Assembly: GCA_913057895.1 (NCBI GenBank)
Contig: CAJXOH010000001.1
Span: 110,584-174,583, forward strand
Source: an uncultured Bacteroidota bacterium
GTDB taxonomy: Bacteria; Bacteroidota; Rhodothermia; Balneolales; Balneolaceae
DNA: 64,000 bases
Direction: 5' to 3'
The translations under genes and the position numbers were made by a program. Shown here piece by piece: positions 27,917 through 32,362 of the stretch. Positions within the stretch are counted from its first letter, which is position 1; every line of letters starts with the position of its first letter. The notes below the pieces were generated by a model. That model was not told the DNA's origin. It saw nothing but the letters and a program-made list of their open reading frames with translations, and made no database searches.

Positions 27917-28687
27917 ATGCAACACGCTCAGATTCTTCCCTTGCTCCTTTTCCTATCGTTTATAATACTCTCATGTGAGCAGGCCGTAAGTGATCAACCA
28001 TCACAACAACTTACGTTCGAATCTGTAACATTTTTGCCTTCAAATGTGGAATACACCTCCGATGTTATACAGGATACAACACTGAATGTGTCATTTCAGG
28101 GGGAATTAAATCAAAAAACGACAGGTACACAAGGGGTCGCGTTTGTAACAAAAGGGTCAGCATCACCCCTATTTCTTGATGTTGAACTACAAGAGAATGG
28201 GACCTTTGATGCAGCTGGTCAATTAACCTTAAATACGGGTGAATCCACCACAATTCGTGCACGTATTGAATTTGTTGATCCTAATGGTCAACAAGTTAGC
28301 TATGAAACCTCCATTCCTATTGTGGGTGTTGCCGATGAAGCGCCTGTGATTGAGTCAATTACCCATGCAGATTCTGTGAGGATTCCCTCTTCAGGGTCCA
28401 CATCAATAGTCTTTGTTGCAGAGGTATCCCACCCTATAAGCTTGCAGAATATCGCTTCCGTGACGATGGAATTGATTGATGCTAGCACAAATGAGTCCAG
28501 AGGTGTATTTACGTTGGGAGATCAAGGCCAAGATGGGGATCAGCAAGCCAATGATGGTGAATATTTTGTAGGGTTAAGTATCAATGAAGACAATCAACCT
28601 GCGAGCTACCTATTGAGATGGAATGCAACGTCCGTGACAGGTTTATCGGCACCAGAAAAAACGACCACCCTAGAGATCTTCAGGTAA
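27917..28687 (+). CDS. lipoprotein, function unknown (first gene of the 27917-38066 operon)
   Basis: 256 aa with lipobox FIILSC. It appears beta-rich/Ig-like and has an acidic DQGQDGDQQANDGEYF segment. Its stop overlaps the next ATG (TAATG). Confidence 0.6.
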   Translation: MQHAQILPLLLFLSFIILSCEQAVSDQPSQQLTFESVTFLPSNVEYTSDVIQDTTLNVSFQGELNQKTTGTQGVAFVTKGSASPLFLDVELQENGTFDAAGQLTLNTGESTTIRARIEFVDPNGQQVSYETSIPIVGVADEAPVIESITHADSVRIPSSGSTSIVFVAEVSHPISLQNIASVTMELIDASTNESRGVFTLGDQGQDGDQQANDGEYFVGLSINEDNQPASYLLRWNATSVTGLSAPEKTTTLEIFR

Positions 28688-30315
28688 TGACAATGATGAA
28701 ACCTGGAATGTTTTCATATAGTTGTGGGTGGGGCATCATTTTGTTGGTAGTTGCGGGAGTGTTTATGCCAAGCTACAGTCAATCTTCAACCTGGATAGGT
28801 CCATTGTTTGATCGTGAAAATTCGTTTCGTCAAAACAGTATTTCAGTTATCGGTGCCAATGATCAAGGTGTATGGATTGGACCTGGATTAGAGCAGTCCA
28901 TCCCTCCTTTTGCGTCTTGGAATGCTCCAAATGGTCTTGATTCTGTGAATCTAGGAACAGCTTCTTTGTATTCCATTGATGTACAAAGCCCAATACTACT
29001 TGCAGGTTTAGGCGCAACAACGACAATTGATGATGAATCTGTGCCTCGAGCTGCAGGCTATGGACTATCACAAGACAAGGGGGAATCTTGGACATATCAA
29101 CCCTTTGATTTAGATCCAGAACCCGATCCTGTACGTTGCCCTGACCCATCACTATTGGACGAAGCGTGTGATTTATCGTTTAGTTATGGGGCAAATGAAT
29201 ATCGAAGAGTGCGCATTACCGTCCCTGAACAATCACCACCCTACGATCTTTTTTTCCATGACAATACTTTGTATGCAGCACACTGGGCTTCAGGTGTGAA
29301 AGTATCCAGGGATCTAGCCGAAACATGGCAGTTTGTTCCTTTACCCCCACAACCTGCATCCCAAATGACCCCCACGTCGTCAACTTCATGGACAAGTACG
29401 ACCTCAAGCGGATCCATTGATCGATACGATCCTCGATCTGATAATAATTTGCTTGGTTTCTCTGTACATGTGGACGATAAAGATGTCGTTTATGTTGGCA
29501 CAGCAGGTGGACTCAATGTGTCGGAGGATCTTCACGAATTGGGCCCCACAGAAGCGTCTTGGGTGCATCAACAAGCCAATGGATCAGCTAGAGGCTTACT
29601 TGGTAACTGGATCATTAGAATTCGTCAAGACGCAGAAACAGGAGACTTGTGGATGACTAATTGGCCTACTTCTGCGTCTGAGCGATACGGATTGGTTCAA
29701 ACTAATGATGGTGGTGCGACCTTTAATCAACACCTAATTGGACAAAAAGTGAATGATATAGGATTTATGGGCTCAACCATCCTTGCTGTTGGAGATCAGT
29801 TACATCGTTCTGTAGATGGAGGCAAGTCTTGGAGAAGTCAAACCCCTCTATCAGTGGTTGGAAATCAACTTCCATTGTCCACGGAGTTTTTTTCCATTGA
29901 TACCTATCAGAATATCGTCCTTGTAGGAAGCTCACAAGGATTACTTGTTTCTGAAGATGAGGGTCTAACATGGGAGCTTTTACGAGTCGATTATCCATTG
30001 ACAGGACAACACAATACACGACCAAGTGATTCAGTAGATGGGTACGTCTATCCAAATCCATTTTCACCCACAACCCATGAATTTGCTCGTATTCGTTTCA
30101 ATGTTGATGAACCCATGACCGTTTCCGTCTCCATATTTGATGGTCAGATGCGAAGAATCTATCAATCCAGTGAATCCGTGGGATCAAATGGTATCTATGA
30201 AGTGCTTTGGAATGGGAGAACCACCAATGGTCTTGAAGTACATAATGGTGTCTATTTTGTACAAGTAGAAGGTAAGAGCATGCTTTTTCGTGGTAAAATT
30301 TTAGTGGTGCAGTAA
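28687..30315 (+). CDS. BNR/Asp-box beta-propeller protein with T9SS C-terminal sorting domain
   Basis: The start is reassigned to ATG 28687 (MTMMKPG...), which gives a normal signal peptide (ILLVVAGVFMPSYSQ). Asp-box motifs: SQDKGESW, TNDGGATF, SVDGGKSW, SEDEGLTW. The C-terminus is YVYPNPFSP...VSVSIFDGQMRRIY...YEVLWNGRTTNGLEVHNGVYFVQVEG...KILVVQ, a Por_Secre_tail / FlgD-Ig-like type A CTD. Confidence 0.8.
   Translation: MTMMKPGMFSYSCGWGIILLVVAGVFMPSYSQSSTWIGPLFDRENSFRQNSISVIGANDQGVWIGPGLEQSIPPFASWNAPNGLDSVNLGTASLYSIDVQSPILLAGLGATTTIDDESVPRAAGYGLSQDKGESWTYQPFDLDPEPDPVRCPDPSLLDEACDLSFSYGANEYRRVRITVPEQSPPYDLFFHDNTLYAAHWASGVKVSRDLAETWQFVPLPPQPASQMTPTSSTSWTSTTSSGSIDRYDPRSDNNLLGFSVHVDDKDVVYVGTAGGLNVSEDLHELGPTEASWVHQQANGSARGLLGNWIIRIRQDAETGDLWMTNWPTSASERYGLVQTNDGGATFNQHLIGQKVNDIGFMGSTILAVGDQLHRSVDGGKSWRSQTPLSVVGNQLPLSTEFFSIDTYQNIVLVGSSQGLLVSEDEGLTWELLRVDYPLTGQHNTRPSDSVDGYVYPNPFSPTTHEFARIRFNVDEPMTVSVSIFDGQMRRIYQSSESVGSNGIYEVLWNGRTTNGLEVHNGVYFVQVEGKSMLFRGKILVVQ
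30058..30312 (+). other. T9SS type-A C-terminal sorting domain (within the cargo CDS)
   Basis: The last 85 aa or so carry the NPF...(V/I)xIFD...G...W(N/D)G...G...GVYF...K(I/V)xxx pattern. Confidence 0.75.
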
Positions 30316-31394: not shown

Positions 31395-32362
31395 ATTCCA
31401 CGGTCCCATTTTTAATGAACCAGGTCACAGTATTCGTTAGATGTTCACTTGTACTCATGTTGTTTGTCTTAGGGTCTGTATCTGGCGCTCAGGGACAGTC
31501 GCTAGAAACGCCAACTCTCGATTTGGTTGACATTCCATTTAATCCCAAAGTTCAAGCTCTAGGTGGTGCTGGTGGACTTTCAAACAATGGGCCAAACTCA
31601 ATTTTATACAATCCTGCTCTGCTGGCAACATCCACTGATAATTGGATTGAGGCATCATACACTGCTTGGATTTCAAATACCTCTTTTCAGTATGCGGGTG
31701 TTTCTTGGGTAGGTCGCCGTGCAATCTTTGGGATTACACTTCAACGGTCTGCTGTTGGAGAGTTGCAAGCTCGCACTCAACCAGGGCCTCCTACTGGAAC
31801 GTTCTCAGCAGAAAACCTCATGATTACAGCTGGATTTGCTCGAAATTTAGGTCCTGTGGCTTTAGGGGTCAGTGTAAGTGCATTACGGCAAGAGATCTTT
31901 CAATATCGTGCAAGTGGGTTCTCGTTTTCAGCGGGAGCTTGGGCTCCTCTTCTCGACAGTCGGCTTCAATTTGGTGTATCACTTGAGCATGTAGGTGAAT
32001 TGGACGCATTAGATCAAACGTCTACAGAGCTTCCTCATAGAATACGTCTCTCGAATAAGTCACACGTACTATCTCTCACCATCAACGAATCAAGAAGTGT
32101 TGATTTACATAGTTACCTAGATGTAACAAAGCAACTCATGAGTAATGATCAGGACGCGGTCGTCCATTCAGGTGTGGAAGTTAGTTTTAATGATGAAGGC
32201 GGATTTCGCCTAGGTAAAGAATGGAAGGATACAGAACAGAGTTTTTCTGCTGGTTTATTCCTGTCAACAGATCGTTTTGGGCTTGATTACACGTTTAGTC
32301 CATTCTCTTCAGGCTTCGGAACCGCTCATTCGATTGGTGTACGGATCCCACTTCGTCCATGA
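31391..32362 (+). CDS. PorV/PorQ family T9SS outer-membrane protein (PorQ-like)
   Basis: 323 aa with a signal peptide. The N-terminal motif DIPFNPKVQALGGAGGLSNNGPNSILYNPALLA matches the recalled PorQ/PorV pattern (L.lP.sar.aALGG...NPALL). It has a beta-barrel-like C-terminus. It overlaps the upstream gene as ATGA. Confidence 0.65.
   Translation: MNSTVPFLMNQVTVFVRCSLVLMLFVLGSVSGAQGQSLETPTLDLVDIPFNPKVQALGGAGGLSNNGPNSILYNPALLATSTDNWIEASYTAWISNTSFQYAGVSWVGRRAIFGITLQRSAVGELQARTQPGPPTGTFSAENLMITAGFARNLGPVALGVSVSALRQEIFQYRASGFSFSAGAWAPLLDSRLQFGVSLEHVGELDALDQTSTELPHRIRLSNKSHVLSLTINESRSVDLHSYLDVTKQLMSNDQDAVVHSGVEVSFNDEGGFRLGKEWKDTEQSFSAGLFLSTDRFGLDYTFSPFSSGFGTAHSIGVRIPLRP

Follow-up and report, generated by a model that had tools for sequence, protein, structure and literature searches.

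A conserved gene module for a beta-propeller protein with a type IX secretion sorting domain and two PorV/PorQ-like barrels in Bacteroidota

The window analysed here is a stretch of 64,000 nucleotides (nt) from an uncultured bacterium of the Balneolaceae (Balneolales, Rhodothermia, Bacteroidota; GenBank assembly GCA_913057895.1, contig CAJXOH010000001.1, positions 110,584 to 174,583 of the forward strand). It carries a four-gene module that encodes a lipoprotein, a propeller protein with a type IX secretion system (T9SS) C-terminal domain (CTD), and two outer-membrane barrels, called barrel 1 and barrel 2 below (Table 1). The initial annotation had placed a propeller protein of 542 amino acids (aa) and two barrels at 28687-32362, and the list of open reading frames (ORFs) bears this out, with ORFs of 542, 359 and 323 aa. 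The junctions read TAATG between lipoprotein and propeller and between propeller and barrel 1, and ATGA between barrel 1 and barrel 2 and between barrel 2 and the next gene. The database copy of the propeller protein starts two codons later and has 540 aa. The genome is 1.68 Mb in 69 contigs, is 95% complete, and its relatives are Balneolaceae. Sampled relatives of the same family have 2.8-4.7 Mb, which points to a streamlined lineage; it retains the module, and its module copies are unusually divergent (25-30% identity for the barrels).

Table 1. Features of the module and its context in the window
Feature	Position	Strand	Description	Basis
Lipoprotein gene, 256 aa	27917..28687	+	Frequent first gene of the module	ORF
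Propeller gene, 542 aa	28687..30315	+	Predicted secreted BNR/Asp-box beta-propeller with type A T9SS CTD	ORF
Predicted Sec signal peptide, propeller residues 1-31	28687..28779	+		Read from the sequence
Single beta-propeller, about seven blades, residues ~36-437	28792..29997	+		AlphaFold2 model, invariant columns
Type A CTD, residues 453-542	30043..30312	+		TIGR04183 match
Barrel 1, 359 aa	30315..31394	+	FadL/PorV-type outer-membrane barrel	ORF, family model, AlphaFold2 model
Barrel 2, 323 aa	31391..32362	+	PorV/PorQ-family barrel	ORF, family model, profile search
Glycan genes: GT1-like, CE4 deacetylase, GT4, UDP-GlcNAc 2-epimerase	32359..36987	+	Context, outside the core	Pfam, ORF

The order of these genes is conserved far beyond the family. 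A scan of species-representative genomes gave 398 relatives of the propeller protein, and loci were analysed for the best 80, all of them from Balneolales. Gene order was counted in 70 Balneolales loci with enough flanking sequence and in 20 distant loci, with models built from the Balneolales orthologues. With L for the lipoprotein, C for the propeller and 1 and 2 for the barrels, the Balneolales loci read L-C-1-2 (53), C-1-2 (16) and C-1-1-2 (1, barrel 1 being split). The distant loci read L-C-1-2 (12), C-1-2 (1), L-C-1 (2), C-1 (1), L-C (2), 1-L-C (1) and C alone (1). The propeller-barrel 1-barrel 2 order was thus found in 70/70 Balneolales loci and in 13/20 distant loci, Ignavibacteria included, and barrel 1 followed the propeller in 70/70 and 16/20. 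The initial annotation had held that the placement of the three genes was not random, and synteny over about 90 genomes excludes chance. Its outline of a propeller with two barrels also stood, but it had overlooked the conserved lipoprotein upstream and the phylum-wide age of the arrangement.

The genes overlap in most of the 73 loci in which junctions were measured, by 1, 4 or 8 nt (-1, -4 or -8) between propeller and barrel 1 and by 4 nt (-4) between the two barrels. These overlaps were kept despite protein identities of only 25-40%. Matches to the propeller protein span its whole length: within Balneolales they have 37-45% identity, elsewhere in the class E-values of 1e-109 to 1e-137, and across many further families of the phylum E-values of 1e-45 to 1e-93. 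The Balneolales barrels were 23-33% identical to the window copies. In a phylum sample of 301 genomes, a propeller orthologue was present in 45/49 genomes of the same family and in all sampled genomes of the order and the class; full-length matches occurred in many other families, and the remaining families gave matches at the level of the CTD only. The distant orthologues that could be named belong to Ignavibacteria. One Rhodohalobacter metagenome-assembled genome (L061:9608-15380) has about 1.7 kb and 2.0 kb between propeller, barrel 1 and barrel 2, and it is the sole Balneolales locus with broken tight coupling.

All four Asp-box motifs quoted in the initial annotation (SQDKGESW, TNDGGATF, SVDGGKSW and SEDEGLTW) are present in the 542-aa protein, together with a fifth one, SRDLAETW. 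Among 22 orthologues the key residues of these motifs do not vary. Further features of the family are a conserved Cys pair (C151/C161) and the motifs TVPEQSPPY, WASG, LPP, RYDPRxDNNLLGF and WMTNW. The predicted signal peptide has the hydrophobic core GWGIILLVVAGVF followed by ...SYS/QSS (the slash marks the site), so that cleavage would fall before Gln32; residues 1-35 are poorly conserved (0.23). The T9SS sorting domain proposed for the protein was confirmed: residues 454-539 matched the type A model TIGR04183 with 25.1 bits (curated cut-off 23), and the match also aligned to the CTDs of PorU and PorZ. Gln directly follows the predicted cleavage site in three exported proteins of the module, namely SYS/Q (28780), ASA/Q (30423) and AQG/Q (31496). 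Gln at this place agrees with the 'Bacteroidetes Q-rule' (PMC5837995). The AQ pair is nearly invariant among the barrel 1 orthologues.

With 22 orthologues as input, AlphaFold2 gave a model of the protein with a predicted local distance difference test score (pLDDT) of 82 and a predicted template modelling score (pTM) of 0.79. In it, a single propeller of about seven blades is joined by a flexible linker to a CTD that forms a beta-sandwich. The pLDDT was mostly 82-95 over the propeller (residues ~36-437) and below 50 at linker residues 441-452. The linker (residues 438-466) is flexible yet conserved: over 79 orthologues, and compared within this family only, mean column identity was highest in the linker (0.72), against 0.65 in the CTD and 0.63 in the propeller. 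That linker and CTD are as conserved as the propeller would fit a structural role for the CTD.

The protein had been likened to PorZ, as a smaller version with one propeller instead of two. The single propeller is what the model shows. The likeness to PorZ stood as one of architecture and fold class, but not as specific homology. In a Foldseek search of the PDB the best E-values went to the ectodomains of the hybrid sensors BT4673/BT4663 and to PorZ 5m11 (E 1e-11); the template modelling scores (TM) to these were only 0.2-0.3, because these targets carry two propellers. The best superposition of the propeller was on Ycf48 (TM 0.62-0.64, normalised to the target). The PorZ model NF052228 matched the CTD only, with 15.3 bits against a cut-off of 260. 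HHalign against a six-member PorZ alignment gave a probability of 97% with the CTD and 52% for the propeller alone. We therefore rejected the label of PorZ homologue, since it is the CTD that raises the HHalign probability, and without it the propeller does not reach significance. The propeller resembles PorZ in architecture and fold class, without demonstrable homology.

Enzyme families were searched as well. In Pfam and NCBIfam, no sialidase or glycoside hydrolase profile scored above threshold on the propeller; the F510_1955 glycosylhydrolase family gave a partial match (48 bits against a cut-off of 175), and sialidase folds superposed with TM 0.26-0.32. Pfam gave weak, sub-threshold matches to BNR, Sortilin-Vps10 and PSII_BNR. 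The copies of Pfam and NCBIfam that were searched gave no specific model for the propeller or the lipoprotein. In the sources, the propeller orthologues are named hypothetical, FlgD-Ig-like, BNR or PSII stability/assembly factor-like proteins. As far as can be read from motifs and profiles, the propeller is probably a binding or scaffold domain without a recognisable catalytic site.

The initial annotation had described the two following genes as barrels of the PorV/PorQ family. The family match was found, but with NF033709 barrel 1 scored 41.2 bits and barrel 2 84.3 bits, both below the cut-off of 90. The barrel 2 orthologues of larger genomes scored 137-156 bits, above the cut-off; those of barrel 1 scored 68-86 bits, below it. 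Barrel 2 had also been called PorQ-like. It does lean to PorQ (81.8 bits with NF033711) over PorV (25.3 bits with NF033710), but it falls far short of the PorQ equivalog cut-off of 220. Neither barrel reaches either equivalog: barrel 1 scored 25.8 bits for PorQ and 12.1 for PorV, whose cut-off is 250.

Single-sequence searches of both barrels against PDB sequences gave nothing, and matches came from profiles only. The barrel 1 profile matched TbuX/TodX (2e-6) and PorV (6e-3), and that of barrel 2 matched PorV 6h3i (E 1e-10). A model of barrel 1 (27 orthologues, pLDDT 81) best matched PorV of Flavobacterium johnsoniae in the substrate-bound translocon (8gl6_F, TM 0.59/0.58), then TodX, FadL and BamG (9hiv_F). 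With the BamG model NF053685 the window barrels gave no match, and the canonical PorV of the same genome was marginal (16 bits). The two barrels are distant paralogues (HHalign probability 98.5%, 17% identity). An N-terminal NPA motif is present in both; N-P is invariant and A nearly so in both alignments. At its C-terminus (32329-32362) barrel 2 reads ...GVRIPLRP, and a close relative (L014) reads ...GLRVPLTP; nearly all other barrel 2 orthologues have an aromatic or Leu end (...QYKF, ...QYQL), which is the usual barrel assembly signal.

Gene loss separates the two barrels. Of the sampled same-family genomes, four (98-99% complete) are without the propeller, and all four are also without barrel 1. 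Two of them (G124, G260) lack all three genes, and the other two (G212, G292) have kept barrel 2. In G212 (L134, C25:1-13000) barrel 2 is the only module gene left at the conserved site beside trpE; lipoprotein, propeller and barrel 1 have disappeared from it. In G292 (L135, C10:38000-43894) barrel 2 has neither the propeller nor barrel 1 immediately upstream. Among the distant loci, three have barrel 1 after the propeller and no barrel 2, and one has barrel 1 just upstream of the lipoprotein. The co-loss in 4/4 genomes and the loci with barrel 1 only indicate that the tightest unit is the propeller with barrel 1. Barrel 2 is a looser companion. Of the two, it is thus the divergent barrel 1, and not the PorQ-like barrel 2, that goes more tightly with the propeller.

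A T9SS is encoded elsewhere in the same genome. SprA scored 1480 bits. The porU gene is split over two contig ends (C11:43449-45578 and C12:43607-45052; 527+430 bits), and a canonical porV lies directly downstream of it (C12:42431-43597; 286 bits, cut-off 250). A canonical two-propeller PorZ (C9:47602-50217) scored 351 bits against a cut-off of 260. A better PorQ candidate than barrel 2 lies at C3:41239-42243; with 149 bits it is still under the cut-off of 220, and it is not adjacent to porZ. Further PorV-family barrels are encoded on C10 (PorV2-like) and C14 (the sixth). The window barrels are thus extra paralogues and not the only porQ/porV genes of the genome, and their assignment as housekeeping PorQ/PorV was rejected. 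Because a complete T9SS is present elsewhere in the genome, the module is an addition to it. Canonical PorZ was also found in 5/5 distant genomes that carry the module, with 6 to 23 PorV-family barrels each.

Among the 301 sampled genomes, SprA was detected in 237 and a propeller orthologue in about 139, and about 98 SprA-bearing genomes are without the module. Whole SprA-bearing families lack the propeller, among them f15 with 16 genomes and f21 with 22. This makes the module a lineage-restricted addition and not a universal part of the T9SS core. The module-less families score very high on the SprA model, which was presumably built on Flavobacterium-type sequences; this suggests that they are Bacteroidia.

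The lipoprotein has the lipobox ...IILS/C followed by EQAVSD and carries two immunoglobulin (Ig)-like domains. Its family matches are weak (choice-of-anchor X, 17 bits; Big_9 in one orthologue). In most Balneolales loci, orthologues of about 270 aa sit -35 to +4 nt from the start of the propeller gene. The gene lies directly upstream of the propeller in 53/70 Balneolales and 17/20 distant loci and is absent from Fodinibius-type loci. It is a frequent, not an obligatory, part of the module. The residue after the lipid-bearing Cys is D or E in 47/54 sequences, and acidic residues at this place mark surface exposure (PMC12578637). The sequences thus suggest a surface-exposed lipoprotein, though not in all members. 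A search for the lipoprotein in the four propeller-less genomes gave no match, but neither did the positive control, G104, so that the negative carries no weight; the genus of G104 seems to be without the lipoprotein.

Downstream, the module overlaps into the glycan genes of Table 1, which encode a GT1-like glycosyltransferase (GT), a CE4 deacetylase whose N-terminal half has no known domain, a GT4 and a UDP-N-acetylglucosamine (UDP-GlcNAc) 2-epimerase. The block adjoins the module in most Balneolales loci. In other Balneolales a Wzx-like flippase (Polysacc_synt, 81 bits; L018:12530-13933) lies between the GT1-like and CE4 genes. The window (32359-34832) and its close relatives L015 and L016 have no flippase there, and the two genes around the gap meet or overlap (13 nt of overlap in the window). 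In the distant loci, the same-strand genes downstream of barrel 2 belong to related enzyme classes in 5/9 and are unrelated in 4/9. Three, of Ignavibacteria type, have a FemAB-family protein (L113:272-4042, L108:6483-9984, L111:2257-3222), with 62 bits to TIGR03019 in the one locus scanned against NCBIfam. In the two of them that were scanned further, a GT-like gene comes next; after it L113 has an Asn-synthase-like gene and L108 a flippase. One other distant locus has a GT2-like gene, and one has a series of GT1, CE4 and GT4.

The same enzyme classes make the linking sugar for T9SS cargo attachment in the Wbp/Vim pathway of Porphyromonas gingivalis (PMC7468200). Its VimA matches the FemAB family, VimE and VimF are a CE4 enzyme and a glycosyltransferase, respectively, and the Asn-synthase-type amidotransferase is WbpS; for Tannerella forsythia an epimerase has been predicted (PMC7468200). 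The shared classes are suggestive and not probative, because such enzymes are common in polysaccharide clusters, trpE is equally conserved beside the module, and a search of the window's genome with TIGR03019 gave no FemAB/VimA-like gene, which leaves the analogy with the Vim pathway incomplete here.

On these data, we believe that the genes probably build a surface complex alongside the known T9SS attachment machinery. The lipoprotein (where present), propeller, barrel 1 and barrel 2 would be translated as a coupled unit. The propeller protein would cross the inner membrane through Sec and the outer membrane through the T9SS translocon (SprA) by means of its CTD, as the domain and the complete T9SS suggest. 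It would then remain surface-bound, with its uncleaved CTD attaching it non-covalently to a cognate FadL/PorV-type barrel; barrel 1 is the likeliest candidate. The analogy is with PorZ, whose CTD is retained and binds PorQ, and with PorU, which PorV holds in like manner; cognate PorV-like barrels may shield the CTD from cleavage (PMC10202324, PMC8545088). Barrel 2 and the lipoprotein would be the remaining members of the complex, with the lipoprotein perhaps seated on a barrel in the way that BamH is on BamG. A surface glycan or glycolipid might be the ligand of the propeller; we favour it, weakly, because Wbp/Vim-like glycan genes are often adjacent. For the core of this proposal, an ancient orthologous surface module, in Bacteroidota lineages other than those in which T9SS work has been done, in which the propeller is docked by an uncleaved CTD on its cognate barrel, we see the chances as evenly balanced.

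Several results weigh against this docking proposal. Both window barrels fall below the cut-off of the PorV/PorQ family model. The trpE gene is kept beside the module no less than the glycan genes are, and part of the synteny may be inertia. A mirror-tree analysis (partial correlation given trpE, 33 loci) gave 0.54-0.70 for the module proteins and 0.40-0.67 for the neighbouring glycosyltransferase GT356, and thus did not separate them. The lipoprotein is missing from 16/70 Balneolales loci, and at least two acidic residues among the first six, as the surface-export rule asks, occur in only 30/54 lipoproteins. Barrel 2 persists alone in two genomes and therefore has some independent role. Finally, the eight class-level loci had no link to glycan genes, so that this link depends on the lineage.

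The barrels could instead be private shuttles that carry this propeller from SprA to PorU, which would cleave the CTD and then link the propeller covalently to a glycolipid or release it. The best fold match of barrel 1 is indeed PorV in a substrate-bound translocon, the profile of barrel 2 matches PorV, and the flexible linker before the CTD is like that of cleaved cargo. A role in collecting cognate substrates from SprA has been put forward for PorP/SprF-like barrels (PMC9143113), and conserved adjacency and coupling would suit a carrier as well as a dock. However, the canonical PorV is present, and in studied species it serves type A CTDs generally. Two different barrels for one cargo are hard to account for, and the conservation of linker and CTD, compared within this family only, exceeds what a generic signal would need. 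The shuttle explanation may hold, though we are inclined to doubt it.

FadL-type channels suggest another possibility, an uptake device for a hydrophobic or amphipathic substrate, with the propeller and the lipoprotein as surface capture proteins and the T9SS serving only to export the propeller. The barrel 1 profile favours the toluene channels TbuX/TodX over PorV, and the fold match of its model to FadL/TodX is almost as good as that to PorV. Both barrels have kept the NPA hatch motif, barrel 2 can occur alone, and complexes of a barrel with surface lipoproteins are typical of the phylum (PMC12578637). We consider uptake quite improbable, however: the PorV/PorQ family model is the one NCBIfam family that the two barrels match, CTD handling is suggested by the way PorV-family barrels repeatedly pair with CTD proteins in these genomes, and no catabolic or uptake genes are conserved beside the module. 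Hardly credible is a secreted sialidase or GH74-like enzyme exported as ordinary T9SS cargo next to unrelated or housekeeping barrels: BNR/Asp-box repeats are known in such enzymes, GH74 and sialidase structures are among the fold matches, and F510_1955 matches weakly, but the profile and fold searches largely refute a sialidase, the propeller has about seven blades against six in the catalytic propeller, the GH74 cleft requires two propellers, the housekeeping PorV, PorU, PorZ and a better PorQ candidate lie elsewhere, and the gene order is kept across the phylum.

Among described systems, the docking proposal has its closest counterpart in PorZ-PorQ of the P. gingivalis PorU-PorV-PorQ-PorZ complex, in which PorZ is a glycan-binding protein that sits on PorQ through its uncleaved CTD (PMC8545088). 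Both arrangements have a T9SS-exported seven-bladed propeller, a type A CTD-like beta-sandwich and a 14-stranded barrel of the PorV/PorQ family. PorZ and its structural relatives, the BT4663/BT4673 sensors, head the Foldseek list by E-value, and Wbp/Vim-like glycan genes often adjoin the module. The differences are that the module has one propeller (PorZ has two) and two barrels with a lipoprotein instead of one barrel, that it is a fixed operon whereas porZ and the porQ-like gene lie apart in the same genome, and that it coexists with canonical PorZ and is absent from about 98 SprA-bearing genomes.

The type B pairs SprB-SprF and PG1035-PorP also place a CTD protein beside its own FadL-family barrel, which anchors it, and there are many such pairs per genome (PMC9143113). 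The CTD of the module is of type A (TIGR04183), in contrast, and its barrels match PorV/PorQ and not PorP/SprF. In BamG-BamH, a FadL-like 14-stranded barrel is the platform for a surface lipoprotein, and the two are encoded as a pair (BamG2-H2) (PMC12578637). BamG was among the fold matches of barrel 1; however, the two-Ig-domain lipoprotein of the module is unrelated to BamH, and the window barrels do not match the BamG model. To our knowledge, the module has no link to BamA. Ycf48/HCF136 and other seven-bladed BNR propellers gave the best superposition and the weak PSII_BNR and Sortilin-Vps10 profiles. The window protein differs in having about 200 aa more, two conserved insertions and a T9SS CTD; the profile scores are sub-threshold, and the host is not a phototroph of that kind. 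The literature searched held no description of the module, of a one-propeller PorZ-like protein, or of pairs of PorV-family paralogues with type A CTD proteins.

Pairs of this kind recur in these lineages. In one distant genome (G109), 8/16 further PorV-family barrels lie directly downstream of a CTD protein of 1000-1600 aa (L120-L126, L131). In the genome of the window (C14:6152-15256), a 1310-aa CTD protein is followed by a PorV-family barrel (181 bits, 4-nt overlap) and then by a 1356-aa CTD protein. The arrangement of a type A CTD protein with a cognate PorV-like barrel thus seems common here, and a general cognate-barrel rule for type A CTD proteins may exist. Type B CTD proteins pair with cognate PorP/SprF-like barrels (PMC9143113). 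No such rule for type A CTD proteins was found in the literature searched.

A bolder extension can be built on these pairs and on the glycan genes. The module might be a second, PorZ-independent attachment arm, in which a one-propeller glycan binder, two cognate barrels and the lipoprotein would present a dedicated anchor glycan to PorU. The glycan would be made by the adjoining enzymes (CE4, GT4, epimerase and flippase, with FemAB- and Asn-synthase-type enzymes in Ignavibacteria), and 'one cargo, one cognate PorV-like barrel' would hold for type A CTD proteins of these lineages in parallel to type B/PorP. We think this extension unlikely and offer it as speculation.

Nearly all that is known of T9SS mechanics comes from Porphyromonas and Flavobacterium. 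The module is kept, without functional annotation, in about 139 of the 237 sampled SprA-bearing genomes, the streamlined 1.68-Mb one included. It is a natural system in which to ask how type A CTDs are recognised and held by PorV/PorQ-type barrels, and what lets some CTDs escape the sortase. It also offers a possible cognate-barrel rule for type A substrates and a possible link of surface attachment with a dedicated glycan pathway outside the model organisms. Cultivable relatives exist in which these points can be tested (Gracilimonas, Balneola, Rhodothermus, Ignavibacterium and Melioribacter).

Transcription signals were also searched in the window. A sigma-70 promoter scan gave fewer sites than shuffled sequence, and the model is ill-suited to this phylum. 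Terminator-like hairpins were found at 38040-38052, at the operon end, and on the minus strand at 27751-27723, upstream of trpE, where 11 pairs are followed by a T-run.

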